Source: an uncultured Oscillospiraceae bacterium (GTDB lineage Bacteria > Bacillota > Clostridia > Oscillospirales > Oscillospiraceae). From it: a DNA stretch of 39,868 nucleotides. Positions 2,384-22,904 of this stretch are shown piece by piece. Each line of letters begins with the position of its first letter. Positions within the stretch are counted from its first letter, which is position 1. The stretch is taken from positions 1 through 39,868 of the forward strand of contig CAAFEV010000196.1 in assembly GCA_900762005.1 (NCBI GenBank), given 5' to 3'. The notes under the pieces were generated by a model. The model made no database searches. It saw only the letters and a program-made list of their open reading frames with translations, and was not told where the DNA came from. The translations under genes were made by a program, and so were the position numbers.

Positions 2384-2908
2384 CTAATCAAGCAAATCGC
2401 GGCGTTCCATGTCTGCGCGAAGCGTCCCGATTGCCTTATGGCAGAGATAACGGACATTGGCATAGCTCAGGCACAGCTTTTCGGCAATATCCCGGTGCGC
2501 CAGCCTGTCGTAATAGTGCAGCACAATAATTTGCCGTTCCCGCTCCGGCAGCGCGGTCAGCGCGTCTGCCAGTGCGTCGCAGACAGCCTCGCGGCAGAGG
2601 CGTTCATCGTCCCCGGCAGATTGGGAAAGCAGCGTATCCAGCACCTCCGGTTCAACGTCGGCAACATATTTTCCGTGTGTTGCGCCCCGGCGCAGATAAT
2701 CGCGCAGGGTATTGTTGGCGATGGTATAGAGCCACGTCGATACGGCGGCCTTTTGTGCGTCGAAGGTCGCCAGGGCGGTCAGTGCCTTGGCGAAAACCTC
2801 GGAGGTCAAATCCTGCGCATCATGCGGATGATGAATGCGCGCGCTGATGTAGGACAGAACCTTGTCGTGGTAATCACTGTAGATACATTCAAAGCTCAGT
2901 TCCGTCAT
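2384..2908 (-). CDS. ECF-type RNA polymerase sigma-70 factor
   Basis: Region 2 DAQDLTSEVFAKA...STWLYTIANNTLRDYLR and region 4 LPERERQIIVLHYY...DIAEKLCLSYANVR; ~174 aa from ATG 2908. Confidence 0.93.
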   Translation of the reverse strand: MTELSFECIYSDYHDKVLSYISARIHHPHDAQDLTSEVFAKALTALATFDAQKAAVSTWLYTIANNTLRDYLRRGATHGKYVADVEPEVLDTLLSQSAGDDERLCREAVCDALADALTALPERERQIIVLHYYDRLAHRDIAEKLCLSYANVRYLCHKAIGTLRADMERRDLLD

Positions 2909-3092
2909 GATTCTGCTCCGACAAGTCAAAATGCTTGGGTGTCGCCTCCCCGGCAGCCCAGATATCCGCCTCTGCGTCGGTCAAAGCGCGCCCCTGCGCA
3001 AGCTCCGCATGGGTGCGGTCAATCACCGCGCCCAGATGTGCTGTGCCCGCAAATTTCTGATAATCGAAAATTCTTGCAAGCTTCAATTCCAT
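2889..3092 (-). CDS. 67-aa protein with a double-glycine/NHLP-like leader motif (LTDAEADIWAAG)
   Basis: GGAGGA RBS before ATG 3092; fills the gap between the ABC transporter and the sigma factor; motif aligns with LTDDVIDLISGG of the 9704 precursor. Confidence 0.8.
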   Translation of the reverse strand: MELKLARIFDYQKFAGTAHLGAVIDRTHAELAQGRALTDAEADIWAAGEATPKHFDLSEQNHDGTEL

Positions 3093-3102
3093 ATGGTTCC
3101 TC

Positions 3103-5286
3103 CTACTTCTTCTCCGTGCCGGCATCCACGCGCTGCCGCGCAACCAGCTCGCTGAAAAATCCGTTTTTGGCAAGCAGCTCGTCATAGGTGCCGTCCTCGA
3201 TAATTTTTCCCTTGTCCAGCACTAAAATCCGGTCGCACTGCCGTATGGTGGAAAGCCGGTGCGCAATCACAATTCTGGTGCAGCGCAGACTATCCAGCGA
3301 TTGCGAAACCTGCTTTTGCGTGATGTTGTCCAACGCCGAGGTCGCCTCATCAAAGAAGAGAATGCGCGGCTTCGGTGCAATGGCGCGGGCAATCAGCAGA
3401 CGCTGCCGCTGTCCGCCCGAGATGCCGCCCGAGCCCTCGGAAATAATCGTGTGCATCTGCATCGGCATGGCGCGGATATCGTCGGCAATTCCCGCCATTT
3501 CCGCCGCCGCCCAAGCCTCATCAAGCGTCAGCCATGGCGCGGTAATCACGATGTTCGAGAAGATATCGCCGGAAAAGAGCTTGCCGTTCTGCATCACCGA
3601 GCCGATGCTGCGGCGCAGGGATTTCAAATCCAATGCGGAAATATCCTTGCCGTCATAGTAAATCGCGCCCTTTTGCGGCGTTTCAAAGCCTAAGAGCAGC
3701 CGCATCAGTGTGGACTTTCCGCAGCCGGTCGTGCCGACAATGGCGATATACTGTCCGCTTCGGATTTTCAGGCTGAGGTTGTCAATCACGAGCGGCGCAT
3801 TTTCGTCATAGCGGAAGGAGACATTGTTGACCTCGATTGCGCCCGTGAGCCGTGTGACGACCTTTTTCCCCTGTGATATTTCCGGTACCGACTTTAAAAT
3901 CGGCTCAACCATGTGCAGGGTCGGCCGGATGTCCGCAATTTGCACCGCCATGCCCGCCAGCTGCAAAAATGCGCCGACCACCATGCCGTAGGCGGCATTG
4001 AACGCCATATATTCCGCGACGGAGATTTTCGCCCGCACAGCAAGAAAGTAGATAACCGCCACGCCGATTGCAGAAATAAAGGAGGACACCGCCGCATACG
4101 CCTGCGGATAGTACTTATACGTCAGTACGTTTTTATACAGCCCCGCCCACTTGGCAAAGGCGCGTTTTTCCGCGCCGGAGATTTTGACCTTCTGAATGCC
4201 GGAGAACAGCGAATACACCAGACCGCTCTCCTTCGCGCGCGCCTCGAGCAGCTTATCGGAGCACTTCATCTGCCAGACCGTGACCAGTACCGCAAAGCCG
4301 CAGGTCGCTAAAATAATCAGAATCGCCGGCAGCGCCAGCGCAGCGGAATAGTCAAAAATCTGGAACAGATAGACCAGAGAAAAAGCCGCGCTGAGCCCGG
4401 AGGCGAGCACAATCTCCACGAGCAAATCACAGAGCTTGGCAACGCCGGCCGTGCGGCTTGCCAGATTACCCGCGCCATAGCCCTTGAAAAAGCCGGCAGG
4501 CAGGGAGAGCACGCGCATCATCGTCGCCGCTTCGACGGCGATTTTCAACTTGGTCTGAATACGCGAAAGCATCAGGGATTTTGTGATGCCGAGCAGCGTG
4601 CTCGACACGGTAACGCCGAGCAGCAGCACCGCCGCCGCCAGCAAAAGCGCGGTGCTTTCGCTGAAAATCACCTGTCCGAACACCAGACTGTTGGTATATG
4701 CCGTCAGAAGTCCGATAAGCGCAACTGCCGCCGTTGCCGCCGCAAGAAACACATAGTCCGCAACTGAGAGCACATTGCCGATATAGCGCACAAGGTCGCC
4801 CGCAGTCATTGCCCGCAGGGGGAAGGGCTTATAAAAACAGATTGCCTCGCCGGTAAACCGTGCGGCGTTTTTGCGGTTGACGCGCACGCGCTTGCCCAGC
4901 GTCTTATCGTAATAGGTATAGCCGGAGAATCTGCCGGGAATCAGGGCGACAACGCCGTCCGGCGTTGCGCAAAGCAGCGCGCCGTAGCCGTCGCGGTACC
5001 AGCTTCCCTCCAGCTGCACCGTGCGGCGCATAATGCCGGAGGGGCGCAGAAGAAATTCCAGAATGTCGTTCAGGCCGCGCAGCTTGTCGGGCAGCTCCTG
5101 CATGGGTACGCGGTAAAAATCAAGGATTTCCTGCACGGCATCCGCCGTGCGCTTGGTATCGTCCGCCATCGCCGCGTCAAAGGGGTCCTTGCCCGTAACG
5201 ACCCCTGCCATCGCCGCAAACGCGGCAGAGAAGGCCGCATCGTCATGCACCATCCGCTGCTTTATTTGTTCGTCAAACCATCCCAT
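3103..5286 (-). CDS. NHLP/NHLM bacteriocin-system ABC transporter, permease/ATPase without active peptidase
   Basis: Degenerate N-terminal domain (RTVQLEGSWYRDGYGALL), TM region, GTTGCGKST, ISGGQRQR, FFDEATSALDN; paired with a C39-type ABC. Confidence 0.9.
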   Translation of the reverse strand: MGWFDEQIKQRMVHDDAAFSAAFAAMAGVVTGKDPFDAAMADDTKRTADAVQEILDFYRVPMQELPDKLRGLNDILEFLLRPSGIMRRTVQLEGSWYRDGYGALLCATPDGVVALIPGRFSGYTYYDKTLGKRVRVNRKNAARFTGEAICFYKPFPLRAMTAGDLVRYIGNVLSVADYVFLAAATAAVALIGLLTAYTNSLVFGQVIFSESTALLLAAAVLLLGVTVSSTLLGITKSLMLSRIQTKLKIAVEAATMMRVLSLPAGFFKGYGAGNLASRTAGVAKLCDLLVEIVLASGLSAAFSLVYLFQIFDYSAALALPAILIILATCGFAVLVTVWQMKCSDKLLEARAKESGLVYSLFSGIQKVKISGAEKRAFAKWAGLYKNVLTYKYYPQAYAAVSSFISAIGVAVIYFLAVRAKISVAEYMAFNAAYGMVVGAFLQLAGMAVQIADIRPTLHMVEPILKSVPEISQGKKVVTRLTGAIEVNNVSFRYDENAPLVIDNLSLKIRSGQYIAIVGTTGCGKSTLMRLLLGFETPQKGAIYYDGKDISALDLKSLRRSIGSVMQNGKLFSGDIFSNIVITAPWLTLDEAWAAAEMAGIADDIRAMPMQMHTIISEGSGGISGGQRQRLLIARAIAPKPRILFFDEATSALDNITQKQVSQSLDSLRCTRIVIAHRLSTIRQCDRILVLDKGKIIEDGTYDELLAKNGFFSELVARQRVDAGTEKK

Positions 5287-5299
5287 TTCCGCATCCCCC

Positions 5300-7483
5300 C
5301 TATTCGCTGGTAATCAGTCTGGTATACAGACCGCCGAGCGCAAACAGCTCGTCATGCGTACCGCGCTCGACGACCCTGCCGCGATCCATGACGATAATTT
5401 CATCGCAGTCGCGGATGGTGGAAAGGCGGTGCGCCACAACAATGCAGGTAATGCCGCGATCCTTGATGGATTTGACAACCTCATATTCCGTCTTTGCGTC
5501 CAGCGCACTGGTTGCCTCGTCCATGATGATAATTGTCGGGTCCTGCGCCAGAACGCGGGCAATTTCCATTCTCTGCCGCTGTCCGCCGGAGAAGTCCTTG
5601 CCGCCCTCCATGATTTTGTACTGATAGCCGCCGTCACGCTGCATGATGTCCTCATGAATCTGCGCATCGCGTGCCGCCATAATCATTTCAAAGTCCTCAA
5701 TGGAGGGATCCCACATCTTGATGTTGTTCGCAATCGTGTCCTCAAAGAGGATAATATCCTGATCGACCACCGCCAGAGAGCCGGTAAAAACCTCGCGGTT
5801 GATTTCGCCGATGGGCTTTCCGTCAAAGAGAATTTCGCCGCTCCACGGCTTGTAAAGACCGGAAATCAGCTTGGACAGCGTGGATTTTCCGCAGCCCGAG
5901 GAGCCGACAAAGGCAACGCGGCTGCCCGGTCTGAGCGTCATGCTGAAATGCTCAATCAGAGGCTTGCCGAGCCGTGCGTAGCCGAAGGTGACGTCGCGCA
6001 GCTCCACCGTGCCGGAGAGCTTGTCGTAGGACGCCTTATCCGACACATCGTTCTCGGTGTACTCCACATCGGCTGGATAGCGCAGGACATCCTCAATGCG
6101 CTCCATGTTGGTGCGCGTCTCCTGCAGCTTCTGTCCGGCGGCAATCAGCTTGCCTGCCGGGGCGGCAAAGGACGCCATATACCCCTGAAACGCCAAAATC
6201 ATGCCGACGGTAAATTCTCCGCGCATCGTTAAAAATACGCCGAGGATTAAAACCGCAATGTTGGCAAGCGAGGAAATGAAGCCCGGCAGCACGCCGAGGT
6301 ATTGGTTGATTTTCGCGTAGCGCACGTTTTGCGTATTGACGCTCGCCTGATAGCCCGCCCATTTTTCGTAATACCCGTTTTCCGCACCGGACGCCTTGAT
6401 GGACTCAATCATGCCGATGCCGTTGACGGTCATGCCCGCAAGCTTGCCGGCGTTGCGCATCTGCACGCGGGTGATGTTGACCTTTTTTGCCGCCGTCAGC
6501 CGCGCAACCAGCAGATTCAGCACAATTGAGAAAACGCCGACCACCGTCAGTATCAGGCTGTAGCGCAGCATGACAACGAAATAAACCACCATCATTATCG
6601 CATCAAGCAGCAGCGGTGCAAAGGTATTCATCAGCTCCTGCGCCACACTCTCGTTCTTCGTCTGGCGGTCGGCTATGTCGCCCGCCATGCGCTGAGAGAA
6701 AAACTCCATCGGCGCACGCAGCACGTGCCACATGAACGCGGAGTTGGAAATTATCGCCAGCTTTCCCTCCACCTTAAGCATATACAAGCCCTTAATCGCA
6801 AGCGTCAGCAGTTGAATTACCGCCAACGCCCCCAGCGCAAGGGTAAACGGATAGAGCCATTCCGGGTTCTTGCCCGCCAGCAGACGGTCAATGAACACAC
6901 GGGAAAACGCCGGATTTAACAGGCTTAACAGAATGCTGATAAAGCTGGTGGTGAGAATCAGCGCGAAGCCGACACCCGTTCCGCGCAGCCGGCTGAGCGC
7001 AAATTTCATGACGGATTGCGGCTTTCCGCCGGGGACAAATTCCTCCGTCGGGGTAATCACCATACACACGCCGGTAAAGCTGTTGTCAAACTCCTCCATC
7101 GACACGCGGATGCAGCCCTTTGCAGGGTCATTCAGCACCGCCTTGCCCTTGCGGAAGCCGTCCAGCACGACGAAGTGGTTCATATTCCAGTGGATAATGC
7201 AGGGGAATTTCCCCACCTTTTTCAGATCATCCACCTCGTAAAGATACGCCTTTGCAAGCATCCCATAGCTACGTGCGGCAATCAGAATGTTCTTCGCACT
7301 CGAGCCGTCACGGGAGACACCGCAGTCCGTGCGCACCTGTTCCAGCGGAAGAAATTTTCCGTAATACGCCAAAATCATCGTCAGCGAGGCGGCACCGCAT
7401 TCCAGTGCCTCCATCTGCATCACGACGGGCACCTTGGCACAGCCCTTTGTCACCGGGGCGGGGACTTTCCTCTTTTTTTCCAT
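5300..7483 (-). CDS. NHLP-family bacteriocin export ABC transporter, C39 peptidase/permease/ATPase
   Basis: QMEALECGAASL (catalytic Cys), HWNMNHFVV (His), LNDPA (Asp); GSSGCGKST, FSGGQRQR, DEATSALD. Confidence 0.95.
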   Translation of the reverse strand: MEKKRKVPAPVTKGCAKVPVVMQMEALECGAASLTMILAYYGKFLPLEQVRTDCGVSRDGSSAKNILIAARSYGMLAKAYLYEVDDLKKVGKFPCIIHWNMNHFVVLDGFRKGKAVLNDPAKGCIRVSMEEFDNSFTGVCMVITPTEEFVPGGKPQSVMKFALSRLRGTGVGFALILTTSFISILLSLLNPAFSRVFIDRLLAGKNPEWLYPFTLALGALAVIQLLTLAIKGLYMLKVEGKLAIISNSAFMWHVLRAPMEFFSQRMAGDIADRQTKNESVAQELMNTFAPLLLDAIMMVVYFVVMLRYSLILTVVGVFSIVLNLLVARLTAAKKVNITRVQMRNAGKLAGMTVNGIGMIESIKASGAENGYYEKWAGYQASVNTQNVRYAKINQYLGVLPGFISSLANIAVLILGVFLTMRGEFTVGMILAFQGYMASFAAPAGKLIAAGQKLQETRTNMERIEDVLRYPADVEYTENDVSDKASYDKLSGTVELRDVTFGYARLGKPLIEHFSMTLRPGSRVAFVGSSGCGKSTLSKLISGLYKPWSGEILFDGKPIGEINREVFTGSLAVVDQDIILFEDTIANNIKMWDPSIEDFEMIMAARDAQIHEDIMQRDGGYQYKIMEGGKDFSGGQRQRMEIARVLAQDPTIIIMDEATSALDAKTEYEVVKSIKDRGITCIVVAHRLSTIRDCDEIIVMDRGRVVERGTHDELFALGGLYTRLITSE

Positions 7484-7493
7484 GACCGCGCCC

Positions 7494-7979
7494 TCAGCCG
7501 AAAATGTAATCCAGCGGACGGATTTGCTCCGTCACAATCTCCGCGCGTGCAAACGTGCCGTCCGTCAGTGCATCTGCAAGCGTCAGCTCCACTACATAGC
7601 TCCATTCCGGCAGGGCAAGGCAGTACAGCGCGTATTCGTCCGCGCCGCTTTCCGTCTGCGCCCGGTCGCGGGAAATCGGCTTTGCGGAAACAGCGGTAAC
7701 CGTGCCGTGTACGCCGTTGACCGTGACCTCCTGCCCCTGCATGATGCCGGAGGCATCCGCCATATAGCAAACGAGCTTGCCGTCCCTGGCAACGCCGGAC
7801 GCAGTTACGGTGGTATCCAAGCTGCCGACCGCCGCCCAAACAAGCAGCGCAATCAGCAGCGCAGCCGCAGCCGCAAGCACCAGCCAGATGCCGGGGTTGG
7901 AGATTTTTATGTAGTCATGCAGCTCCTCCGGCGAGGACACCTTCTTTACGCTCTCTTTTCGGAAAATCGTTTCTGCCAT
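7494..7979 (-). CDS. NHLP bacteriocin-system secretion accessory protein (short HlyD-like)
   Basis: IFRKESVKKVSSPEELHDYIKISNPGIW N-terminus, one TM helix, C-terminal EQIRPLDYIF; GAAAGGA RBS before ATG 7979. Confidence 0.82.
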   Translation of the reverse strand: MAETIFRKESVKKVSSPEELHDYIKISNPGIWLVLAAAAALLIALLVWAAVGSLDTTVTASGVARDGKLVCYMADASGIMQGQEVTVNGVHGTVTAVSAKPISRDRAQTESGADEYALYCLALPEWSYVVELTLADALTDGTFARAEIVTEQIRPLDYIFG

Positions 7980-8057
7980 TTTTGTTACGCATCCTTTCAT
8001 CTGTTGCTCTGCTGCGTCGGTCAGGCAAGGGGTCGTAGTTCGGATTCTCTTCCTCCA

Positions 8058-8086
8058 AGTATACCATACCGTTCCTTATTTCGGAA
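8058..8086 (-). promoter_or_regulatory. putative extended -10 sigmaA promoter of the export/sigma operon
   Basis: Minus strand TTCCGA, 17 nt spacer, TATACT, with TG one base upstream of the -10. Confidence 0.55.
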
Positions 8087-8179
8087 GTTTTTTTGCTTAA
8101 AAGCCAAAAAAACCTTTCGCAACCGCAAAAAATGTGGTATCTTGTGGTTATCAACTCCGAGAAAAGGAGGTGTGCGTCC

Positions 8180-9433
8180 GTGCATTCGGAATGGAGCTAT
8201 CTCATATACTTATACGTATGCGGTGCCGCTTCTGTTAGTGCCGAAGCACCGAAGGAAGCAATTTCCTGGCAAATCCTCTGGTCGCTTGCACAGCAGCAGG
8301 CAATTACCGGTGTGATTGCACACGCGCTGCGCCGTTCGCCCGCGCTCGACTGTCCGGCAGATATACGCAACGAGGCAACTTCCTTTCTGCTCGGCAACGC
8401 GCTGTCTAACACCGCACAGCAGGAGGCGGTGCTGCGGATAATTGCCATGCTGGAGCACAACGGATTGCATCCCGCCGTCCTGAAGGGCATGGATGTCGCC
8501 CGGTTTTACGCCTACCCCGAATGCCGCAGCTCCGCCGACACGGATTTGCTCCTGCCCGCGCAGGAGGAGGAAGCGGCACTCAGGCTGCTGGCACAGGCGG
8601 GCTTTCAAATTGAGCGGCGTAGTGAACAGACGCACCACAGCTCTTGCTTCCGTGCAGACACGGGACTGCTGGAGCTGCACGGACGGCTCTGGAGCACCGT
8701 CGCGGAGCAGGGCGTCTTTGCCGGGCGCGGTGCTGCGCTTTTACCGCTCGGCAGTACGCGGCACGTCCCCTTTGCCGGAACGCAGCTTCCCGTTTTGCAG
8801 GAGACAGACGCTCTGCTGTTTCTGGCGATGCATCTGATTAAGCACTTTGCCGTGCAGGGCACCGGCGTGCGCATGGCATACGATTTCACTTTATATTATG
8901 CAAGCAACCGCGCGCATATCGACCGCGCCCGCTTTTGGCGCGTCATGGAGCAGCTGGGCTTTGCAGGAATCGTGGGCGGCATTTTCGGCATCTTTGTGCG
9001 CTGGGGCGGCTTTTCGGCGCAAACCCTCGATGCGCCGCACCTGCCGGACGAGCAGACCTGCCGTCTGCTGCTGGAGGATTTTGCCAATTACTCCACCGCT
9101 GAGGTAATTGATGTCTCCTTAATCAACGAAGCATGGGTGCTTTTCTGCAAACGTACCGCCAGACGCACCGGTAAAGGCTATCGTTTGCGTATGGCACTGC
9201 GCCGTCTCGGCACACGGGTACAGCTGCTCTTTCCGAGCGCAAAGGTCCTTGCGGTGCAGTATCCCTATTTAAGCAAGCACTGTTTTCTCTACCCTGTCGC
9301 CTTTACGCAGCGTTTTTTTGCGGTGCTCTGCAGCAAAGAGCGTCGCCGCGCTACCCGCGTCCTGCACGATCCCCGCACCGTCACGGGTAAAACGCAACAG
9401 CGCGCCGCCCTGTTTGAGGCTTTGGGCATTTAG
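8180..9433 (+). CDS. nucleotidyltransferase family protein (NTP_transf_5-like)
   Basis: VLKGMDVARFYAYPECRSSADTDLL motif, LELH, HLIKHF...G.R...D; AAGGAGGT RBS before GTG 8180. Confidence 0.88.
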   Translation: MHSEWSYLIYLYVCGAASVSAEAPKEAISWQILWSLAQQQAITGVIAHALRRSPALDCPADIRNEATSFLLGNALSNTAQQEAVLRIIAMLEHNGLHPAVLKGMDVARFYAYPECRSSADTDLLLPAQEEEAALRLLAQAGFQIERRSEQTHHSSCFRADTGLLELHGRLWSTVAEQGVFAGRGAALLPLGSTRHVPFAGTQLPVLQETDALLFLAMHLIKHFAVQGTGVRMAYDFTLYYASNRAHIDRARFWRVMEQLGFAGIVGGIFGIFVRWGGFSAQTLDAPHLPDEQTCRLLLEDFANYSTAEVIDVSLINEAWVLFCKRTARRTGKGYRLRMALRRLGTRVQLLFPSAKVLAVQYPYLSKHCFLYPVAFTQRFFAVLCSKERRRATRVLHDPRTVTGKTQQRAALFEALGI

Positions 9434-9556
9434 CTCCGGGTTTATGACCGCCGCGCAGCACCCGCCCGTGCGTCCGCTCTCTGCGAAAGCAGCCCGGGAA
9501 ATGTCCGTGTAAAGGCTGTATATAAAAAAAGAAATCTGAAATTATATGCAATTCGC

Positions 9557-9585
9557 TTGACTTTACCGCGAAAATATGGCATACT
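9557..9585 (+). promoter_or_regulatory. sigmaA-type promoter upstream of the precursor genes
   Basis: TTGACT (9557-9562), 17 nt spacer, CATACT (9580-9585) with extended TG. Confidence 0.6.
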
Positions 9586-9613
9586 GAAAAAAATAAGCTG
9601 AACGATATTTTTT

Positions 9614-9642
9614 CCTAACAATCCCCGTTTTCCTGCGTATAA
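9614..9642 (+). promoter_or_regulatory. putative ECF sigma promoter upstream of precursor 1
   Basis: cctAACa: AAC (9617-9619), 16 nt spacer, CGT (9636-9638) in CGTATAA; matches the generic ECF AAC/CGT consensus. Confidence 0.5.
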
Positions 9643-9703: not shown

Positions 9704-9916
9704 ATGAGTGAAAATAAGATTGATTTGAAGGAAGCCAAGAAAATGGCCGAGGAGGCCGGCGTTGAGCTGACCGACGATGTCATTGACCTGATTTCCGGCG
9801 GTGCTATCCCTGTTGAAATTTGGAATGAGATGCCGCCCGAAGAGCGTCGCGCTGCCCAGCAGCTTTCCATTTTTAACAAGTTCGTCTTGAAGCAGCCCTG
9901 CGCACTCGACCCGTAA
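9704..9916 (+). CDS. candidate RiPP precursor 1, double-glycine (Nif11/NHLP-like) leader
   Basis: AAAGGAG RBS; 33-aa leader ending AEEAGVELTDDVIDLISGG; 37-aa core AIPVEIWNEMPPEERRAAQQLSIFNKFVLKQPCALDP. Confidence 0.88.
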   Translation: MSENKIDLKEAKKMAEEAGVELTDDVIDLISGGAIPVEIWNEMPPEERRAAQQLSIFNKFVLKQPCALDP

Positions 9917-9926
9917 GAAAAGCCCT

Positions 9927-9957
9927 GCCGCGGCGGCTTTTCCGCCGCGGCGGTTTT
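9927..9957 (+). terminator. GC-rich hairpin (terminator or mRNA stabiliser) between the two precursor genes
   Basis: GCCGCGGCGG-CTTTT-CCGCCGCGGC, then GGTTTTA. Confidence 0.65.
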
Positions 9958-9985: not shown

Positions 9986-10210
9986 ATGTATCAAGCACCT
10001 GATTTCGTCAAGGTTTCCGTAAAGGTCAAGGACGTTTTTGCCGGATACGCGCAGAAGTGCCCGTACGATTTTATGGACACCTCGTCCTACACCACCAACC
10101 CGCCGATCGTTACAAACTGCCCCACTACCGATCCGAACTATACATACTCCGCATATATTTACACGGCAGTCATGGCGCCGGCAAACTGCTACAGTACTTT
10201 AAATATGTAA
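9986..10210 (+). CDS. candidate RiPP precursor 2, YxxP (RRE-binding type) leader with Cys/Tyr/Thr-rich core
   Basis: AAGGAGG RBS; MYQAPDFVKVSVKVKDVFA leader; Cys25, Cys45, Cys68; directly upstream of kinase, PqqD and radical SAM genes. Confidence 0.85.
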   Translation: MYQAPDFVKVSVKVKDVFAGYAQKCPYDFMDTSSYTTNPPIVTNCPTTDPNYTYSAYIYTAVMAPANCYSTLNM

Positions 10211-10219: not shown

Positions 10220-11089
10220 ATGGGCATTTTCCCGGTATCATCCGAACAACTGAATTTACTGGATATCGGCAGGCGGTTTTCCCCTTTTTCAAACGAGGCG
10301 TGTAAACTGCCCGTTTGTTATGTCCATTTTTATACACGGGAGGACTTTGCGGCGGCATCGGCGCAATTTTCCGCCTTTTCCGCATACATTGCAAAATGTG
10401 AGCGCGGCGAGACCATTTCCGGCGAGCTTTCCGTCAACGAATTCGGCTTTTCGCCGCTGACAGACGGCATTGCCCTGCGCGATGACGAGCCGGTTTTTAT
10501 TTGGCTGCACAACGCTTACCGCCGGATGGAGGTTGTATTGCCTGCCGGCTTTGCTACTCCGCACCGCATGGAGCATCTGGCCATGCGCGCTTACCAGTAC
10601 ACCGCCGTAATGAGCGATTTTTTCCTGCTGCACGCTGCCGCCGTCGAATACTGCGGCGCGGGGATTGCCTTTTGCGGCATTTCCGGCGCGGGAAAAAGCA
10701 CGCAGGCACGGCTTTGGAGCCGTACCTACGGTGCAAGCGCAATCAACAACGACCAGCCCTGCGTATTCTTTGATAACGGCTCCGCCTTTTTACACGGCAC
10801 ACCGTGGAGCGGCAAGGAGCCGTGCTACCGCAACGAGTACTTCCCGCTGCGTGCGATTGTCTTTGTCGAGCAAAGCACGACCGAGCGCGTAGAGCGGCTT
10901 TCCGCCGCCGAGGCCTTCTCCCTGCTGTATCTCAACAACCGGATGCTGCCGATATATCCCGCGCCCGAAGCGGCCTATACCGCACTGGCGGAACGGCTTG
11001 CCACCTCGGTGCCGGTTTACCGCCAATTTTGCTCGGCAACCGAGCTTGCCCCGCATACTCTGCGGCAGGCACTTTTCGGAAAGGATTAG
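10220..11089 (+). CDS. HPr-kinase-like P-loop protein (ScmC / RiPP-associated kinase type)
   Basis: LLHAAAV...FCGISGAGKSTQARLW...INNDQP...GTPWSGK. Confidence 0.8.
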   Translation: MGIFPVSSEQLNLLDIGRRFSPFSNEACKLPVCYVHFYTREDFAAASAQFSAFSAYIAKCERGETISGELSVNEFGFSPLTDGIALRDDEPVFIWLHNAYRRMEVVLPAGFATPHRMEHLAMRAYQYTAVMSDFFLLHAAAVEYCGAGIAFCGISGAGKSTQARLWSRTYGASAINNDQPCVFFDNGSAFLHGTPWSGKEPCYRNEYFPLRAIVFVEQSTTERVERLSAAEAFSLLYLNNRMLPIYPAPEAAYTALAERLATSVPVYRQFCSATELAPHTLRQALFGKD

Positions 11090-11094: not shown

Positions 11095-11373
11095 ATGACA
11101 CACTATACCGCGAAAAAGCACTTTGCACTCAAGGAAATTGCCGGAGAGTTCCTCCTGATGGCACGCGGTCCCGAAGCACTGGATTTCAGCGCGGTTATCG
11201 TATTCAATGAGACCGGCGTTTTTCTTTGGAACGCACTTGCCCTGCCGCGTACCGCCGAGGAGCTGGCGCAGCTGCTTGCCGCGCAGTTTTCTCTGTCCCC
11301 CGCAGAGGTCAGCGGAGATGTTGCCGCGTTTTTAAAGAAAGCAGAAGAAGAGGGCCTGCTCTGTATCGAATAG
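11095..11373 (+). CDS. PqqD-family RiPP recognition element (stand-alone RRE)
   Basis: 92 aa; LKEIAGEFLL...FNETGVFLWNAL...EELAQLLAAQF...DVAAFLKKAEEEGLL. Confidence 0.92.
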   Translation: MTHYTAKKHFALKEIAGEFLLMARGPEALDFSAVIVFNETGVFLWNALALPRTAEELAQLLAAQFSLSPAEVSGDVAAFLKKAEEEGLLCIE

Positions 11374-11460
11374 CCGTCTGCGGGAGAAAGAAGCTTGAAG
11401 CAAGCTCAGGCTTTATTTGATTTAAGCCGTTTTTCCCGCCGCAAAAACGGCAGCCGAATA

Positions 11461-11535
11461 GCATGGCACTTTATGACCATTCCTTTTTATGGTCTTTTGT
11501 GCCTTGCAGCGCGGCGGAAAGGAATGGTCATAAGT
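11461..11535 (+). promoter_or_regulatory. putative translational control structure over the radical SAM RBS
   Basis: Perfect 16-bp inverted repeat TTATGACCATTCCTTT (11471-11486) / AAAGGAATGGTCATAA (11518-11533), plus a competing local hairpin 11461-11507. Confidence 0.6.
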
Positions 11536-12702
11536 ATGTCTCTTTACGATAAAATTAAATCGTCCGACAATCCCATAAAGGCCTACGGCGATGCGCTTGT
11601 TCAGCTCACTGCGCAAAATCGCTCGCTCTGTGTTGCAACACTTGAACTCAGCCCGGTGTGCAACTTTACCTGCCCGTTCTGCTTTGCACGGCAGTCTGCG
11701 CAAGCCCTTGCCGCCAAGGGTGAGCATATTCTGCGCTTTGACGGCTGGCAGCGGATTATCGACGGTCTTTCGGAAATGCAGGTAATGTCACTGAGCTTTA
11801 CAGGCGGCGAATGTATGCTCCATCCGGATTTTACCCGCATCTATCGTTATGCCTACGAAAAAGGCTTCGAAATCTCCTTGTTGTCCAACGGCTCTGCAGT
11901 AACCGACGAAATCATTCGTCTGTTTTGCGCCTGTCCCCCGCAGAGTATGTATTTCACCGTCTACGGCGCATCGCCGGAAACCTATGAAACCGTCTGCGGC
12001 AATGCGCTCTGGTACGAGCGCGTGCTTGCCAACCTTCGCAAAATGAAGGAGGCGCAGCTCCAGTTTGCCTTGCAGTTCACCGCCGACAAGGAAAATCTCG
12101 CCGATATGGAGCAGATTTATGCCCTTGCAAAGTCACTGGACGTTCCGGTGCGTCAGAACGGACTGTTTATCGCTTACGGCGAATGCAGCAGCGAAACAGC
12201 GCAGGCGCGGGAGGCGGATCCGGCGGAATTTGAACGGATTTCCAAGCAGCTTTATTTTCAGGAGCATCAGACCACCGAGCAGGAATACTTACAGCGTCCC
12301 GTGGCTGCCATAACACCGGTGCAACAGCCGGTGATTGAAAAGGGCATCCCCTGCACGGCGGGCAGAAACGCCTGCTATATCGACTATCGCGGGGTTATGA
12401 CCCCCTGCGTCATTTTTGACGCAATTTCCGTTGACACCGCCGGAAAGACCATCAGGGAATGCTGGCAGCAGCTCGTCGCCGCCTGTGACGAGGTGCCGCG
12501 CTTGGTCGAATGCACGAACTGTCTGCACCGTACCAAATGCAAAACCTGCATTGCCGCACATTATAACGACACCAAGCAGTTCGGGAAGCCCTCTCCCCGT
12601 CTGTGTTATAAGCTGAAATATCCCGAAAAGGCAAGGGAAATTGAGGAACGCTTTGCCCGCGAGGGACATCTGCGCTCCGATATTGACTTGATTAAGGCAT
12701 GA
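11536..12702 (+). CDS. radical SAM/SPASM-domain peptide maturase
   Basis: CNFTCPFC (CxxxCxxC), FTGGE, SNG; SPASM CTAGRNACYIDYRGVMTPC...CTNCLHRTKCKTC...C; start 11536 (alternative 11524). Confidence 0.93.
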   Translation: MSLYDKIKSSDNPIKAYGDALVQLTAQNRSLCVATLELSPVCNFTCPFCFARQSAQALAAKGEHILRFDGWQRIIDGLSEMQVMSLSFTGGECMLHPDFTRIYRYAYEKGFEISLLSNGSAVTDEIIRLFCACPPQSMYFTVYGASPETYETVCGNALWYERVLANLRKMKEAQLQFALQFTADKENLADMEQIYALAKSLDVPVRQNGLFIAYGECSSETAQAREADPAEFERISKQLYFQEHQTTEQEYLQRPVAAITPVQQPVIEKGIPCTAGRNACYIDYRGVMTPCVIFDAISVDTAGKTIRECWQQLVAACDEVPRLVECTNCLHRTKCKTCIAAHYNDTKQFGKPSPRLCYKLKYPEKAREIEERFAREGHLRSDIDLIKA

Positions 12703-14882
12703 TGCAGCCGAAAAACACCGTCGCCGTACTGGGCGACGTGCATGACGGGGCACAGGTCTGCCGGATTGCCGAGGGGGAAACCGAATACATTTGGAAACCC
12801 CGCAATTCCGATACGGAGCTCGCCTTTGCCGCCTTTTTGCAATCGCTCGGCGAGGCGGGCTTTCCCTATTTACCGGGGCAGGTCCGGCTTGTGAAGCAGG
12901 GGGACGGTTGGCACACCGAGCTGCCTGTGGCACATTCCTCCACAGATGCAGACGGTATCCGCCGCTATTACCGGCGTGCCGGTGCCTTGGTTTTCCTTTG
13001 CTATCTGTTCGGCGCGACCGATTTACACGCAGAGAACTTAATTGCAGACGGGGAGTATCCCGTTTTGGTTGATCTGGAAACCCTGCTCGGCGCACCGGCC
13101 GCCCGCACCGTTGACCCCGAGGAGCGTTCGCTGCTCGGCTCGGTGCTCCATTCGCACCTTTTGCCGGTCTTTCAGACGGGCGAAGCCGCCGTGCAGGACG
13201 TAAGCGGATTGTCCGGCGTAACCGCGCAGGGCGCAAACCTGCCGCTGTTAAACGGTGTGCCGCAGAAGATTACGCACTATTGTTCCGAGCTGGCCGAGGG
13301 CTTCGCGGCTGCTTACCGTTTTGCCCTGACCCATACCGAATTGTTTGACGGACTGCTCGGTCTGTTTGACCGCTGCCGCTTTCGGCAGCTGCTGCGTCCG
13401 ACCGCGACCTATGCCGCCTTTCTTTCTGTGCTTGCCGTCGCGAAGCCGCTACAGCGAGAGCCACTGGCGCAGACGCTTGTCATCCGCGCCTATGCGCGTG
13501 ATGTTGACCCGCAGCGGGCGCAGATTGCCGCCGAGGCGATTCGCGCCGAGCGCGAAGCCCTGCTGCACGGTGAAATTCCGCTGTTTTACACCTATGGCAA
13601 CGAAACCGGCCTGCGCAGCGGTGGAAAATCGGTGCTGGACGGCTTTCTGCTCTGTTCACCGGTGGACTGCGCACGCCGCCGTCTGCATCGGCTCGGCGAA
13701 GCCGACCTTTGTAAGCAGCAAACGCTTCTCGAATTGAGCTATCATGCGCTTGCTCCCCTGCCGCCGCACAGTCCGGCGAAAAGCGGCGACCCGCTCGCGG
13801 CAATCGCGGCGGAATTAGAGCACTGTGCCGTGCCCGGGTTGCCGAACGGCTATTTCCGCCTTACCCACGATACCAACGGGCGCGCCTTTTTTGAGAGCGT
13901 CGGCTTCGGTCTTTACGATGGGCTGACGGGCATTGCCTGCTGTTACGCCGCCTTTTATGCCAAAAGCGGGCAGGCGCAATGGCTTGAACGGCTCGACAGG
14001 CTGCTTGCTCCTTTTGCACAAGCCGTGCTTGACCGTCCGTTTTCCGCCCCGCTGTCGGACAGTGTCTGCGCCCTGTCAAACGGGCTTGGCGGGATGATTT
14101 CCGCCCTGTTGCATATCGCGCAGTTGACCGGGCGGGACGAATGGCGCACCGCCGCAGAGGGCTTGGCGCAAAAGCTTGACCCCGCCCGTACCGGTGCACT
14201 TTCCGCCGATTTGCTCAACGGCGGCGCGGGGCTTGCCTTGTGTCTGCCCCGGCTTTCAGGTCAGACCGCCCTGCCGCTGGCGCAGGCACTTGCTCCGACG
14301 CTTGAAGCGGCTGAGCCTACGCTGACCGGCACCGCCCACGGCGCGGCAGGTCTTGCGCTGACACTCGGTGCACTGCAAACGGTGCTCGGCGACGGTCGTT
14401 ATGACGGGAAAATTCTCTCCCTTTTACAATGGGAAAATCAATATTACTGCGAGGAACAGCGGAATTGGCGCGATTTGCGCAAGCCGGAAAAGCCCGCGTT
14501 TATGCGCGGCTGGTGCTCCGGTGCACCGGGCATCGGTATGGCGCGCAGCCGTCTGCTTTCCTACAGCCGCGACAGTCGCATCCGCGCAGTATGCGAGACG
14601 GATATTGCGCGTGTCAAGGACTTTTTATCTCTTGCAAACGACGATGCACGCGCCACGCTCTGCTGCGGTCTTGCCGCAAGCGTCATGGCAGGCTCCTGTC
14701 TCGGTGCGGTAAACGACGCGCAGTATGCCGCGCTTTGCGCTGTAACAAGCACTGCCGCGCCGGAGCTGCTGCACCCGCTGCAAACGGGCGACGATAACGT
14801 ATCCCTAATGCAGGGACTATCCGGCGTCGGCTATGCCCTTGCCCTGTGCGGCAATCCCTTGAGCGGAGGAATGCTGCTTTGA
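12699..14882 (+). CDS. lanM: compact class II lanthipeptide synthetase-like protein (DUF4135 dehydratase + LanC-like cyclase)
   Basis: GDVH, WKPR, DLHAENLI, VDLETL, RQLLRPTATY, GEIPLF; cyclase LYDGLTG, GTAHGAAG, WRDLR, WCSGAPG, LCCG, LMQGLSGVGY; only 727 aa. Confidence 0.85.
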   Translation: MMQPKNTVAVLGDVHDGAQVCRIAEGETEYIWKPRNSDTELAFAAFLQSLGEAGFPYLPGQVRLVKQGDGWHTELPVAHSSTDADGIRRYYRRAGALVFLCYLFGATDLHAENLIADGEYPVLVDLETLLGAPAARTVDPEERSLLGSVLHSHLLPVFQTGEAAVQDVSGLSGVTAQGANLPLLNGVPQKITHYCSELAEGFAAAYRFALTHTELFDGLLGLFDRCRFRQLLRPTATYAAFLSVLAVAKPLQREPLAQTLVIRAYARDVDPQRAQIAAEAIRAEREALLHGEIPLFYTYGNETGLRSGGKSVLDGFLLCSPVDCARRRLHRLGEADLCKQQTLLELSYHALAPLPPHSPAKSGDPLAAIAAELEHCAVPGLPNGYFRLTHDTNGRAFFESVGFGLYDGLTGIACCYAAFYAKSGQAQWLERLDRLLAPFAQAVLDRPFSAPLSDSVCALSNGLGGMISALLHIAQLTGRDEWRTAAEGLAQKLDPARTGALSADLLNGGAGLALCLPRLSGQTALPLAQALAPTLEAAEPTLTGTAHGAAGLALTLGALQTVLGDGRYDGKILSLLQWENQYYCEEQRNWRDLRKPEKPAFMRGWCSGAPGIGMARSRLLSYSRDSRIRAVCETDIARVKDFLSLANDDARATLCCGLAASVMAGSCLGAVNDAQYAALCAVTSTAAPELLHPLQTGDDNVSLMQGLSGVGYALALCGNPLSGGMLL

Positions 14883-15328
14883 CGGAGCTTTATTTTGACC
14901 ATGAGCAGCTGGAGCAGTTGCTTGCCGAAACCGTTTTTCGCGGAGAACGGCTCACCGTTTCCGGCTGCGGGAACAGTATGGCTCCCTTTATCTGCGAGCA
15001 GACGGACAGGGTTGTGCTTGCACCGCTGACAAAGCGCACACGCAAAGCAGGTAACATCTGCCTTTACAAGCGTCCGAACGGACAGCTTGTCATGCACCGC
15101 ATCTGCCGCATCCACGGCGGCTTATGCGATATGCGCGGGGATAATCAGCTTTATATCGAGCACGATGTCGCGCAATGCCAACTGCTGGCGCAGGTTGTGC
15201 AGGTCATCAGACCGAAGCAGACCGTGCGCTGCGACACCGTCCGCGCAAGGCTGCGGTGGCGATACGGGACTCTGCGGTGCTTTGCCGCACGTATCCGCAA
15301 TCGCTTGTTGAAAAAGAAACGAGGATAA
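14879..15328 (+). CDS. S24/S26-family peptidase (signal-peptidase-like, no TM anchor)
   Basis: GNSMAPFI (Ser), LVMHRI (His), RGDN; GGAGGA RBS before TTG 14879, which overlaps the lanM stop. Confidence 0.88.
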   Translation: MTELYFDHEQLEQLLAETVFRGERLTVSGCGNSMAPFICEQTDRVVLAPLTKRTRKAGNICLYKRPNGQLVMHRICRIHGGLCDMRGDNQLYIEHDVAQCQLLAQVVQVIRPKQTVRCDTVRARLRWRYGTLRCFAARIRNRLLKKKRG

Positions 15329-15332: not shown

Positions 15333-17027
15333 ATGAGGCGAATTAAGAATCTTTTCGGGAAAATCAAGGACAACAAGGGTAACGCCCGCTGGCTGCTCGC
15401 GCAGAGCAGCGGCACCAAAAAGTATGTCTTCGGCTTTCTGCTGATTAGCTTCTTTTCGATGCTCTTTTCTCTGGCAAGCCCGATTGCGAGTAAATACGTT
15501 GTTGACGCCGCCACCGGCAAGCGTACCGATTTTCAGCTCTACTATGTGCTGATTATGCTCGGCTCTACGGTCATCTCAATTCTGCTGGGCATTGTGTCGA
15601 ACCTGTTCGGCAGCTATGTCAACGAAAAATATGCCTTCAATGTCCGCGCAAAAATGTTTGACCGCGTGCAGCGCAGCAGCTGGAAACGAATTTCAAAATT
15701 TCACACCGGCGATATGCTCTCGCGCCTTACCTCCGACATTGACAACATCGCCACCAACATCATCAGCCTGCTGCCGAGCATGATTATTACCGCGTTGCAG
15801 CTGGTCATTATTTTGATTGTCGTGCTCAGAACCGACCCGACGCTTGCCCTGATTGGCCTGATTGTCGGTCCCTTCGGGCTGTTGATTACGATTTTTTATC
15901 GCAAGCCCTTCAGCCGCTATCAAACCGCGTTGCGTGAGAGCCAATCGGAGTATTATACCTTCTTTCAGGAGTCGCTGGGCAATCTCAGCGTGGTCAAGGC
16001 GTTTGAGCTGGAGGACCGAAACAACGAGCACTTTCAGGATATTCGTGACCGCCGCTTGAAAACCGTGATGAAAAGCGCACGGCTCAGCTCCGCCATGAGC
16101 GCGTCCATGCGCATGGTTTACAGTCTCGGCTATGTACTGGCGTTCGGCTGGTGCGCTTATCAGCTGCGCACCAATCCGGGCTATACCTACGGCACTATGA
16201 CACTCTTTCTTTCGATGGTTTCGATGATTCAAAGCTCGGTACAGAGCTTGGGCGGGGTTGTGCCGAAGTTTTATTCTATGCTGGTCTGCGCCAAGCGCGT
16301 GCGCGAAATTACCGAGCAGGAGCCGGAGTCAGCCGTCTCGCAGGCGGCTGTTCCGGAGCGGGCGGGGCTGCGCGTGCAGAACGTCAGCTTTACCTATGAA
16401 AATGAAATTGTTTTGAGGAACATTTCCTTCACGGTTGCGCCCATGCGCCGTGTCGGCATCATCGGCTCGTCCGGCGCAGGCAAAACAACTCTGATTCGTC
16501 TGCTTCTGGCACTGGTTATGCCGGACAGCGGCAGTCTGGAATTCACCTGCGGTGACACCGCCGAGCCAAGCTCGTCCGCAACCCGCCGCCTGATATCCTA
16601 TGTTCCGCAGGGTAACACGCTCTTAACCGGCACGGTGCGCGAAAATCTTCTCACAGGTAACCCCGACGCCTCCGACGCGGAGCTTTGGCGCGTCCTGGAG
16701 CTGTCGGACGCGGCGGATTTCGTGCGCAAAGACCCCAACGGGCTGGATATGGCAATCCGTGAGGGCTCCGGCGGTTTGTCCGCAGGACAGGCACAGCGTA
16801 TCGGCATCGCCCGCGCACTGGTGCGCAACCGCCCGGTGTTGATTCTCGACGAGGCAACCAGCGCACTCGATGAGGCAACCGAGCGGCGTATCTTCGAGCG
16901 CGTTGTCTCTGAATGCGGTAAGACCTGCTTCATCATTACGCACCGCAGCTCCATGCTGAAATACTGCGACTGCGTCCTCGAAATCAACGATGACGGAACG
17001 GCAAAAATGACCGACAGGGAGGACTGA
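15333..17027 (+). CDS. ABC exporter, fused permease/ATPase
   Basis: TM domain with HTGDMLSRLTSD; GSSGAGKTT, LSAGQAQR, ILDEATSALD. Confidence 0.95.
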   Translation: MRRIKNLFGKIKDNKGNARWLLAQSSGTKKYVFGFLLISFFSMLFSLASPIASKYVVDAATGKRTDFQLYYVLIMLGSTVISILLGIVSNLFGSYVNEKYAFNVRAKMFDRVQRSSWKRISKFHTGDMLSRLTSDIDNIATNIISLLPSMIITALQLVIILIVVLRTDPTLALIGLIVGPFGLLITIFYRKPFSRYQTALRESQSEYYTFFQESLGNLSVVKAFELEDRNNEHFQDIRDRRLKTVMKSARLSSAMSASMRMVYSLGYVLAFGWCAYQLRTNPGYTYGTMTLFLSMVSMIQSSVQSLGGVVPKFYSMLVCAKRVREITEQEPESAVSQAAVPERAGLRVQNVSFTYENEIVLRNISFTVAPMRRVGIIGSSGAGKTTLIRLLLALVMPDSGSLEFTCGDTAEPSSSATRRLISYVPQGNTLLTGTVRENLLTGNPDASDAELWRVLELSDAADFVRKDPNGLDMAIREGSGGLSAGQAQRIGIARALVRNRPVLILDEATSALDEATERRIFERVVSECGKTCFIITHRSSMLKYCDCVLEINDDGTAKMTDRED

Positions 17028-17029
17028 GA

Positions 17030-20429: not shown

Positions 20430-20451
20430 TAATGGAAAGGAAGAGAATGCC

Positions 20452-22152: not shown

Positions 22153-22535
22153 CCTCACAAACCGCTCAGATTACCGCAGAAGACGTCCGCCGGTTTGTTG
22201 AGGAAGAATTTAAAAAAATGGACGTGCCGCGCACCGTCGCAAGCAAAATGTATATCGCCGTCGATGAGATTGTCTCCAACATTCTGCAATACAGCGGTGC
22301 CGGAGAACTGACACTGTGCTGCGAAATCTCTCCGCAAGCCGTTATGCTCTCCTTCTCCGACAACGGCACCCCCTATGACCCGCTTGCCAAGCCGGACCCC
22401 GATGTGACATTGGCCCTTGATGAGCGCGAAATCGGCGGCTTGGGTATCTTCATGGTGAAAAAAAGCATGGATGCCATGGACTACCGCTTTGCAGACGGAA
22501 AGAATATACTGACTTTAAAAAAACTTATCGTATAA
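22137..22535 (+). CDS. RsbW-like anti-sigma factor / Ser kinase (HATPase_c_2); start anomalous
   Basis: IAVDEIVSNILQYS, FSDNGTPYDPL, REIGGLGIFMVKKSMD, GKNILTL. The first ATG is 22218, but the domain-like frame is open from 22116; the inferred start position 22137 reads ATC. Confidence 0.8.
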   Translation: MKKSLTSQTAQITAEDVRRFVEEEFKKMDVPRTVASKMYIAVDEIVSNILQYSGAGELTLCCEISPQAVMLSFSDNGTPYDPLAKPDPDVTLALDEREIGGLGIFMVKKSMDAMDYRFADGKNILTLKKLIV

Positions 22536-22548
22536 AGGAGAACAGATT

Positions 22549-22845
22549 ATGACGATTCAGAAAACAGCAGAAGGCGCAAGGCTGACCCTGTCCCTGCAGG
22601 GACGTCTGGACACCACCACCGCACCGCAGCTGGAGGCGGAGTTAAAAGGCTCCGTCAGCGGTGTGGAGGAATTGATTTTGGATTTCTCCGAGCTGGAGTA
22701 CATCTCCTCCGCCGGGCTGCGTGTCCTGCTTTCGGCACAGAAGGTCATGAGCCGTCAGGGCAGCATGGTCGTCCGTAAGGTCAACGAAGAGGTCATGGAT
22801 GTTTTTGAGCTGACCGGCTTCGCGGATATTCTCACAATCGAGTAA
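22549..22845 (+). CDS. STAS-domain anti-anti-sigma factor (RsbV/SpoIIAA-like)
   Basis: GRLDTTTAP...LDFSELEYISSAGLRVLL...VFELTGF; AAAGGAG RBS. Confidence 0.95.
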   Translation: MTIQKTAEGARLTLSLQGRLDTTTAPQLEAELKGSVSGVEELILDFSELEYISSAGLRVLLSAQKVMSRQGSMVVRKVNEEVMDVFELTGFADILTIE

Positions 22846-22858
22846 CGCTGCTATCGTG

Positions 22859-22904
22859 AAAACGGCTCCGTCCTGCACCTTGTGCGAAGGACGGAGCCGT
22901 TTTT
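22859..22904 (+). terminator. rho-independent terminator closing the cluster
   Basis: AAAACGGCTCCGTCCT...AGGACGGAGCCGTTTTT long stem with T tract. Confidence 0.88.

Follow-up and report, generated by a model that had tools for sequence, protein, structure and literature searches.

The closest described relatives of the locus analysed here are the LPP clusters, reported as lppAKBSDN from Paenibacillus alginolyticus (Popov et al., Nat Commun 2026, PMC13381572). They make use of the SpI-like peptidase LppS, the RRE (recognition element of RiPPs, peptides made on ribosomes and modified after translation) LppB, the kinase LppK, the NTP-transferase LppN and the MsbA-like LppD. LppS is a soluble SipW-like peptidase with the residues S29, H68 and D93. 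The precursor carries the motif YxxPxVLxHQxIxFETxxS; core Ser3 is polyphosphorylated, and the RRE is required for cleavage of the leader after T-1 by LppS, which needs Phe at position -3 (PMC13381572). The present analysis concerns a RiPP gene cluster with two precursor genes, preA and preB, on contig CAAFEV010000196.1 of an uncultured Oscillospiraceae bacterium (assembly GCA_900762005.1). The window, that is the whole stretch of DNA analysed, is the entire 39.9-kb contig (39,868 nt) of a metagenome-assembled genome that is 84.5% complete. The conserved unit starts at about 2384 or 3103 and ends at 17027. It belongs to a conserved, integrated family of two-precursor RiPP clusters of uncultured gut and rumen Clostridia.

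All five LPP protein types are found in the window cluster, the likeness to LppS being set by the published description of that peptidase. The precursor preB shares the YxxPx-hydrophobic element of the LPP motif and a Phe three residues before the proposed cleavage site. It differs in that the HQ, FET and Ser of the LPP motif and a conserved core Ser3 are missing. The cluster also differs in its additional genes, namely those for a radical S-adenosylmethionine (SAM)/SPASM enzyme, a lanthionine synthetase (LanM), a second precursor and a C39 exporter. LPP products are linear by criterion; here, every related locus with flanking sequence has the radical SAM/SPASM and LanM genes within the operon, and a linear product is unlikely. 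The terms 'radical SAM' and 'LanM' do not occur in the main text of PMC13381572, nor do DUF4135 and LANC_like in those of its supplements that were searched. No published description of the whole combination was found in literature searches. The original prediction, which recognised no characterised RiPP class in this combination, has to be amended, since LPP clusters have these five protein types as their core. New, with no description found, are the extra radical SAM enzyme, a LanM with a CCG motif but without capping helices and the second precursor.

Further described systems share single features with the locus. ProcM-type LanMs, known from prochlorosins, have the same CCG motif and occur with the same exporter families (TIGR03796 and TIGR03797, both above cut-off in the window). 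The window LanM, in contrast, is about 250 residues shorter, has no capping helices and retains a minimal N-lobe; it is accompanied by a short double-glycine leader rather than an NHLP/Nif11 leader and by one conserved substrate rather than many. Of the NHLP/Nif11 system (TIGR03793-03798), the paired transporters ABC1 (C39) and ABC2 are present, whereas an NHLP/Nif11 leader and a full-length HlyD are not. The SynChlorMet cassette of NCBIfam (ScmC HPrK-like, ScmD PqqD-like, ScmE/F radical SAM-SPASM) has the same three-part architecture, but the window proteins score far below its equivalog level (TIGR04248-04251; ScmC 28.6 versus 125, ScmD 20.1 versus 100, ScmE 57.8 versus 400, ScmF 54 versus 400). 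To our knowledge, this cassette is uncharacterised, and the name 'SynChlorMet' was not found in the literature searched.

Paeninodin-type lasso peptide clusters likewise combine a YxxP leader, a PqqD-type RRE and tailoring genes for an HPr-kinase-like protein and a nucleotidyltransferase (PMC13381572). An assignment as lasso peptide cluster was rejected, as no family of an Asn-synthetase-like cyclase or B2 cysteine protease was found among the 16 cluster genes (the scan covered ORFs of at least 95 aa together with preA, preB, PqqD and orfX). The genes expected of sactipeptide and ranthipeptide clusters are present: a radical SAM/SPASM enzyme, a discrete PqqD-type RRE and a Cys-bearing precursor. 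Two-component thioether bacteriocins, such as two-peptide lantibiotics and thuricin CD (PMC12093266), resemble the locus in keeping together, over evolutionary time, two co-encoded, separately modified peptides. As described there, both of their peptides belong to one chemical class, whereas here a lanthipeptide is predicted alongside a product of the RRE, radical SAM enzyme and kinase. The family is a hybrid of known kinds: one half has a precedent from 2026, while the LanM without capping helices and the obligate pairing of two precursors are unusual.

Conservation of the gene cluster

Gene identities in the window were assigned by Pfam and NCBIfam scans, and scores are quoted against NCBIfam cut-offs. 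Nearly every gene named in the original prediction is recovered in this way, and the coordinates agree with the few-nucleotide gaps and overlaps described for the operon. Related loci and contigs carry L-numbers. In a protein search, the short LanM defines a clade of 18 protein clusters with lengths of 696-737 aa and 36-48% identity; the next match beyond them has 29% identity and 1066 aa, and the others listed have approximately 1000-1100 aa. A scan of one genome per species yielded 22 loci of this clade (L029-L050), with more in metagenome contigs. Their hosts, from human and ruminant guts, are labelled as Acutalibacteraceae, Ruminococcaceae, Oscillospiraceae, Lachnospiraceae and Clostridia.

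Gene presence was scored by tblastn with the window proteins, the denominators being the loci whose contig extends to the relevant side. The radical SAM enzyme is found in 18/18 loci, the HPrK-like protein and PqqD in 17/17 each, and the S26-like peptidase in 20/21 (L041 differs). ABC3 is present in 16 of the 21 loci with downstream sequence, its orthologues being 45-62% identical. The nucleotidyltransferase occurs in 9/22 genome loci and the NHLP-type exporter trio in cis in 8/22. In these eight, ABC1 is 61-78% and ABC2 48-72% identical to the window proteins, and the HlyD-like stub is kept beside ABC1. In all five genomes analysed that have no exporter near LanM, TIGR03796 is matched at another place, in four of the five above cut-off (control genomes 0/14).

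Each of the 16 genome loci with upstream flank carries both preA and preB, and so do the four non-duplicate metagenome contigs with flank (L118, L120, L123, L124; L119 and L032 are one contig, which was counted once). With the window counted, this amounts to 21/21 LanM loci. The gene set is retained in L030-L032, L120 and L121 as well, where the order of its genes is changed. The radical SAM gene and both precursors of L030-L032 lie alongside the exporters on the strand opposite LanM, L120 has the order PqqD-radical SAM-HPrK-LanM and L121 the order LanM-ABC3-S26. The precursor genes are occasionally duplicated, with two preB-type genes in L035 (865-1302), L047 (7251-7692) and L048 (7271-7674) and two preA-type genes in L120 (5573-6024). 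An extra 138-aa ORF between the HPrK-like gene and PqqD (L037:3662-4078) breaks an otherwise tight operon.

In a maximum-likelihood tree of 40 radical SAM proteins, a branch supported at 100/99 separates 23 members from LanM loci from 17 members of LanM-less cassettes; as sampling differed between the two groups, LanM-less members within the LanM-linked clade may exist. Outside the LanM loci, 20 of 24 other genomes of the genus match the window radical SAM enzyme, mostly at 24-30% identity. Among 16 such radical SAM loci, 14 have an HPrK-like gene next to the radical SAM gene, and none has LanM there. The genus contains many paralogous HPrK-like/radical SAM-SPASM/PqqD cassettes, with up to 9 radical SAM matches per genome (loci L013-L028; contigs C144, C248, C164 and C273 of genome G000), and the window's own genome carries at least two further full triads of these genes.

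The original prediction had seen two pathways merged in one locus and asked for a synteny search across genomes. This search confirms a non-accidental combination of two precursor types and two enzyme sets: preA, preB, HPrK-like protein, PqqD, radical SAM enzyme, short LanM and S26-like peptidase co-occur repeatedly, in reordered form, in 22 species-level loci and in metagenome contigs. That two independent clusters came to lie side by side by chance in the window genome would fit the different leader types, peptidases and exporters of the two halves. It is extremely improbable given the recurrence of the interleaved and rearranged combination, the single clade of LanM-linked radical SAM enzymes and the position of LanM inside the operon of the other module.

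The two precursor peptides

As predicted, the two small precursor-like genes are arranged in tandem, each with a Shine-Dalgarno site: preA (9704..9916, plus strand) encodes 70 aa and preB (9986..10210, plus strand) 74 aa. The preA peptide of the window consists of a leader ending in DLISGG and a conserved core of 37 aa with Ser55 and Cys66. Across the family (alignment A2), the leader has the canonical double-glycine consensus ELxDDxLDxVAGG. The core is unusually conserved (xYTxEEWxxMTxEERQAAQQRS…PCELD). Residues G32, G33, E38, W40, E47, R48 and S55 are invariant, and the single Cys (C66), located 10-11 residues after the Ser, is nearly invariant. In L037 and L040, the preA core is shorter but retains Ser/Thr…Cys at its end. 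A family search returned only sub-threshold double-glycine-leader families, namely CTB bacteriocin for 9/12 and XyeA for 6/12 homologues. NHLP or Nif11 leaders were not matched by the window preA and by only one of 12 homologues at E ~0.06 for each.

A uniform scan for double-glycine ORFs recovered preA-type genes in 19/21 LanM loci, the remaining two being seen by other means, and in none of 16 LanM-less cassettes. Since preA combines an invariant Ser with a single Cys, has a double-glycine leader and occurs only together with LanM, it is the probable substrate of LanM and the C39 exporter.

The preB leader is of the YxxP type and comprises 21 residues (MYQAPDFVKV…DVFAGY in the window; family consensus MYQxPDFxKV…DVFAxY). 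In alignment A3, M1, Y2, P5, D6, Y21, C25, C45 and C68 are invariant, and K9, F18 and A19 nearly so. The core is hypervariable and rich in Ser/Thr, with the three Cys as its sole invariant residues and no invariant Ser or Thr. A conserved LPP-like phospho-Ser was considered for preB and dropped, as the residue is not conserved. An NCBIfam search gave no match for 15/15 preB members apart from one chance row. Ten Cys-rich peptides with the start MKKxYxKPxL adjoin LanM-less HPrK-radical SAM-PqqD cassettes of the same genus. Based on the YxxP leader, these similar peptides and a radical SAM enzyme that has no RRE of its own, preB is predicted to be the substrate of PqqD, the kinase, the radical SAM enzyme and the S26-like peptidase.

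Enzymes shared with LPP clusters and the radical SAM enzyme

Directly downstream of preB, an HPrK/ScmC-like P-loop protein is encoded as LppK-like kinase candidate (10220..11089, plus strand). Its matches to TIGR04355 (HprK-related-B) and TIGR04249 (ScmC) reach approximately 28 bits, far under the cut-offs. The Walker A motif GxxGAGKST is invariant, and the nearest Atlas clusters carry PF27840 ScmC or bear the name 'HPr kinase'. Compared with the PDB, the profile of the protein found nothing beyond P-loop proteins (ABCB1, adenylate kinase) and weak matches to PEPCK, with no direct HPr kinase match. The following gene encodes a discrete PqqD-type RRE (11095..11373, plus strand; PF05402, E 9e-14), for which a lasso chaperone (E 0.34) was the sole match in the PDB. 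Both proteins form one fused ORF of approximately 360-378 aa in 8/16 loci (L030, L031, L032, L036, L043, L046, L047 and L048; for example L047:7692-8828), which is good evidence that the kinase-like protein and PqqD act together.

The radical SAM/SPASM peptide maturase (11536..12702, plus strand; PF04055, E 1e-16) has no fused RRE. Its SPASM family matches are all below the cut-offs, and its nearest solved structure is SkfB (E 1.6e-9). Between PqqD and the likely start of the radical SAM gene lies a gap of approximately 160 nt (11373-11536 in the window), which is in frame with an upstream TTG and contains weak hairpins. The gap measures approximately 220 nt in L029 and a few nucleotides in others, for example L033 and L044.

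The S26-like protein (14846..15328, plus strand) is a soluble, LppS-like candidate peptidase of 160 aa of the ER/archaeal type. Two leader peptidases had been proposed for the locus. Of these, C39 is confirmed, whereas S26 is weak on the single sequence (TIGR02228 at 20 bits versus 51.85; only chance ribosomal-protein rows in the PDB) and required profile and fold comparisons. The family profile matches human SEC11A/C at E 5e-4 and 8e-4 with the SM…HR…GD motifs aligned; S44, H84 and D99 are invariant, and Peptidase_S24 is matched by 8/9 members. A structural model with a predicted local distance difference test (pLDDT) value of 82.5 places SEC11A, LexA, SipA and SpsB in the top Foldseek rows, all at E >1e-3, with the S24/S26 fold as leading theme.

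The set is completed by ABC3 (15333..17027, plus strand), an LppD-like exporter with ABC_membrane and ABC_tran domains that among NCBIfam models scores best with MsbA (at 258 bits still below cut-off), and by an LppN-like nucleotidyltransferase upstream of the precursors (8093..9433, plus strand; NTP_transf_5, PF14907, E 8e-40). The true start of the latter is probably the ATG at 8132.

The short LanM

The LanM of the window (12699..14882, plus strand) has 727 aa and is assigned to class II by TIGR03897 (362.3 bits versus a cut-off of 304), PF13575 (DUF4135, E 4e-55) and PF05147 (LanC-like, E 5.5e-31). Its nearest full-length relatives are cyanobacterial or from Chloroflexota and Acidobacteriota, at 24-30% identity. 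In CylM, the capping helices comprise residues 5-131 and 180-200 and the N-lobe residues 135-279; the catalytic residues are D252, H254, K274, D347, H349, N352, D364, R506 and T512 (PMC4550811). The alignment of the window LanM with LicM2 pairs its residue 11 with residue 198, and that with CylM pairs residues 29-209 with 270-445. Invariant in the short-LanM clade are D13, H15, K33, D108, H110, N113, D125, R229, R233, C606, C655 and C656, and T235 is nearly invariant. K33 aligns to CylM K274; the remaining residues would correspond to those of CylM by motif order. On the basis of these alignments, the short LanM appears to keep the catalytic residues, while it has none of the capping helices and lacks most of the N-lobe. 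C606, C655 and C656 form the CCG zinc motif, a hallmark of ProcM-like LanMs (PMC10783134).

The structural model of the protein has a pLDDT of 89.3 and a predicted template modelling score of 0.87, with LicM2 (E 6e-30) and CylM (E 2e-21) as best Foldseek matches. The reading as a truncated pseudogene was dismissed: the 18 clade members are alike in length, the pLDDT is 89, and the LanM start overlaps the radical SAM stop, in the window by 4 nt.

Proposed maturation of the two peptides

Gene identities, conservation of the set, the single-clade behaviour, the conserved residues and the LanM truncation are observed. The pairing of enzymes and substrates, the reactions at the individual steps and the positions of cleavage are predicted from them. 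In the scheme that is favoured here, with somewhat better than even confidence, three toolkits are joined in one conserved cluster: an LPP-type set and a radical SAM enzyme for preB, and a lanthipeptide set for preA. PqqD would bind the YxxP leader of preB and present the peptide to three enzymes, namely kinase, radical SAM enzyme and S26-like peptidase. The radical SAM/SPASM enzyme would cross-link the three invariant Cys of preB, thioethers being the likeliest chemistry. By analogy with F-3/T-1 of LppS, the preB leader may be cut after residue 20 (DVFAG|Y), with F18 at position -3. For preA, LanM would dehydrate the conserved Ser and close one large lanthionine ring onto the single Cys, and the C39 domain of ABC1 would cut after GG and export the product.

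Several observations weigh against this scheme. The LanM gene never adjoins preA or the C39 exporter. Instead, it always lies amid RRE-dependent genes, after that for radical SAM enzyme, PqqD or HPrK-like protein and before S26 or ABC3. Another LanM contacts the leader via the capping-helix region (PMC12537861), which is absent from the short LanM. A Ser or Thr between Y21 and C25 is found in just 11/15 preB peptides, the window peptide being one of those without it, and the LPP phospho-site (core Ser3) is not conserved. The NCBIfam matches of the radical SAM enzyme, the HPrK-like protein and PqqD are all far under the curated cut-offs, so their chemistry is not readable from homology, and the profile and Foldseek support for the S26-like peptidase is modest. 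Within the flanks covered, the nucleotidyltransferase, ABC3 and the cis-encoded NHLP exporters are not universal. Finally, preA is found at 21 of 21 LanM loci and at none of 16 LanM-less ones, a contrast between related genomes and not an independent statistic, as the LanM-less set comes from one genus and one other family.

The position of LanM leads to a different pairing, in which the short LanM is recruited via PqqD or the fused HPrK-PqqD platform and acts on preB, either alone or in addition to preA. In that case preB would carry radical thioethers, lanthionines and phosphate, and preA would be a separate signal or an accessory peptide. This arrangement would agree with the embedding of LanM among RRE-dependent genes, its overlap with the radical SAM stop and the missing capping helices. 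It would also agree with loci L030-L032, where LanM shares its direction of transcription with HPrK-PqqD, S26 and ABC3, and the two precursors are encoded on the other strand. CCG-type LanMs are described as promiscuous (PMC10783134), and the Ser/Thr-rich preB cores with their three invariant Cys would offer sites for such an enzyme. However, no Ser or Thr is conserved in the preB core, whereas preA provides an invariant Ser and a single conserved Cys and is confined to loci with LanM; moreover, preB-type peptides are processed in cassettes that lack LanM. Cross-modification is accordingly regarded as possible, though rather unlikely.

A related proposal concerns how LanM recognizes its substrate without capping helices. 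LanM may be a client of a PqqD platform, often fused to HPrK, that hands one peptide in turn to kinase, radical SAM enzyme, LanM and signal-peptidase-like protease, or it may read, in place of a leader, the helical and unusually conserved preA core. The proposal is unlikely and put forward tentatively. An intermolecular thioether joining preA and preB is a long shot.

Exporters and regulatory elements

Upstream of the nucleotidyltransferase, the export genes are encoded on the minus strand. ABC2 (3103..5286) is an NHLP-type bacteriocin export ABC permease/ATPase (TIGR03797, 716.9 bits versus a cut-off of 709.4). ABC1 (5300..7483) is a C39 peptidase-ABC transporter (Peptidase_C39, E 1.7e-33; TIGR03796, 925.8 bits versus 853.3). 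They are accompanied by a short HlyD-like membrane adaptor of 168 aa (7494..8000), which covers positions 1-100 of 421 of TIGR03794 with 42 bits versus 156. The two ABC export routes suggested for the locus are thus both part of the cluster, but the MATE transporter suggested alongside them lies outside.

At the upstream end, orfX (2889..3092, minus strand; 67 aa, no Pfam match) lies between ABC2 and an ECF-type sigma factor, a candidate regulator (2384..2929, minus strand; Sigma70_r2/r4, TIGR02937 above cut-off). Both are linked to the cluster only in L044, the closest full relative. There, a homologue of the sigma factor is found next to ABC2 at the contig edge (46% identity over 92 aa), as it is in no other related locus, and a counterpart of orfX (52% identical) occupies the same place.

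A promoter-like site precedes preA (9557..9585, plus strand; TTGACT-17-CATACT with TG ahead of the second hexamer) and is identified by consensus match only. Strong terminators were predicted to flank the locus. A 16-bp hairpin is indeed located at 1982-2016, upstream of position 2384, where the locus was thought to begin, but the downstream hairpin at 22916-22933 has just 5 bp. The strongest hairpin of the locus is internal and lies between the precursor genes (9925..9953, plus strand; 12 bp, 11 of them GC, followed by a T-run). It is terminator-like and a candidate attenuator, and the 72-nt spacer between preA and preB folds with -31.7 kcal/mol (RNAfold). A comparable hairpin is found in 5/11 loci, the window counted. 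A hairpin 3' of preA as hallmark of the family was dismissed on this count.

Genomic neighborhood

Downstream of ABC3, Pfam and NCBIfam identify genes for a formyltransferase, a DUF2156/LPG_synthase_C protein, a MATE transporter, SpoIIE, an RsbW-like protein and a STAS protein (17030-22845). The original prediction had extended the locus as one unit to 22904 and had counted formyltransferase and DUF2156 among the tailoring enzymes and MATE among the exporters. This extension does not hold, as the region 17030-22845 is a separately conserved neighbor. The genome G009 of the same genus carries formyltransferase, DUF2156, MATE, SpoIIE, RsbW and STAS as a stand-alone syntenic block with 53-80% identity, and no RiPP-like gene is found in the 9 kb upstream of it. 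No gene of this block, formyltransferase, DUF2156 and MATE included, has a match in the 22 related genome loci or in 11 screened metagenome contigs. The genes of 17030-22845 therefore form an adjoining module and represent no tailoring or export step of the RiPP cluster.

The spacing between ABC3 and the formyltransferase gene is 2 nt, with no terminator-like site between them, so read-through from ABC3 is possible in the window genome. This is what a wider pathway would draw on, in which the formyltransferase, DUF2156 and MATE genes (17030-20429) supply further tailoring or export steps. Such a pathway is very improbable in view of the absence of all three genes from the related loci and contigs and of their syntenic occurrence in G009.

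Extended to 23866, the module looks like a membrane-lipid modification unit with partner-switching control. DUF2156 corresponds to the MprF C-terminal aminoacyl-transferase fold, and MATE is fused to a C-terminal HATPase_c_2 domain of anti-sigma-kinase type. They are followed by a HAMP-SpoIIE phosphatase, the RsbW-like kinase, the STAS protein and a phosphatidylserine decarboxylase (PSD).

The remainder of the contig is occupied by housekeeping genes, with rpsF-ssb-rpsR upstream of the locus and PSD, an ECF S-component, a Mur ligase, TrmK, YebC, rplM-rpsI and ParB downstream. The Pfam scan at E <= 0.001 left two long ORFs without a match, one of 272 aa (33797-34615, plus strand) and one of 723 aa (34429-36600, minus strand).

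Implications

The family is the first extension of the LPP family, in which a radical SAM maturase and a lanthionine synthetase are recruited alongside the LPP toolkit, in Clostridia of gut and rumen that have never been cultured. The natural minimal LanM of 727 aa bears on substrate recognition in class II synthetases and could be a smaller scaffold for engineering. Should LanM be a client of the PqqD platform or read a helical preA core, either mode of recognition would be new for class II synthetases, and the former would define a RiPP class that combines radical thioethers, lanthionine and phosphate. In all loci with flank, a conserved lanthipeptide-type precursor is accompanied by a hypervariable three-Cys precursor. 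This constant pairing points to a two-peptide function, be it as bacteriocin, as signal plus effector or in another form; a two-peptide bacteriocin or a signal is a guess at the biological role.

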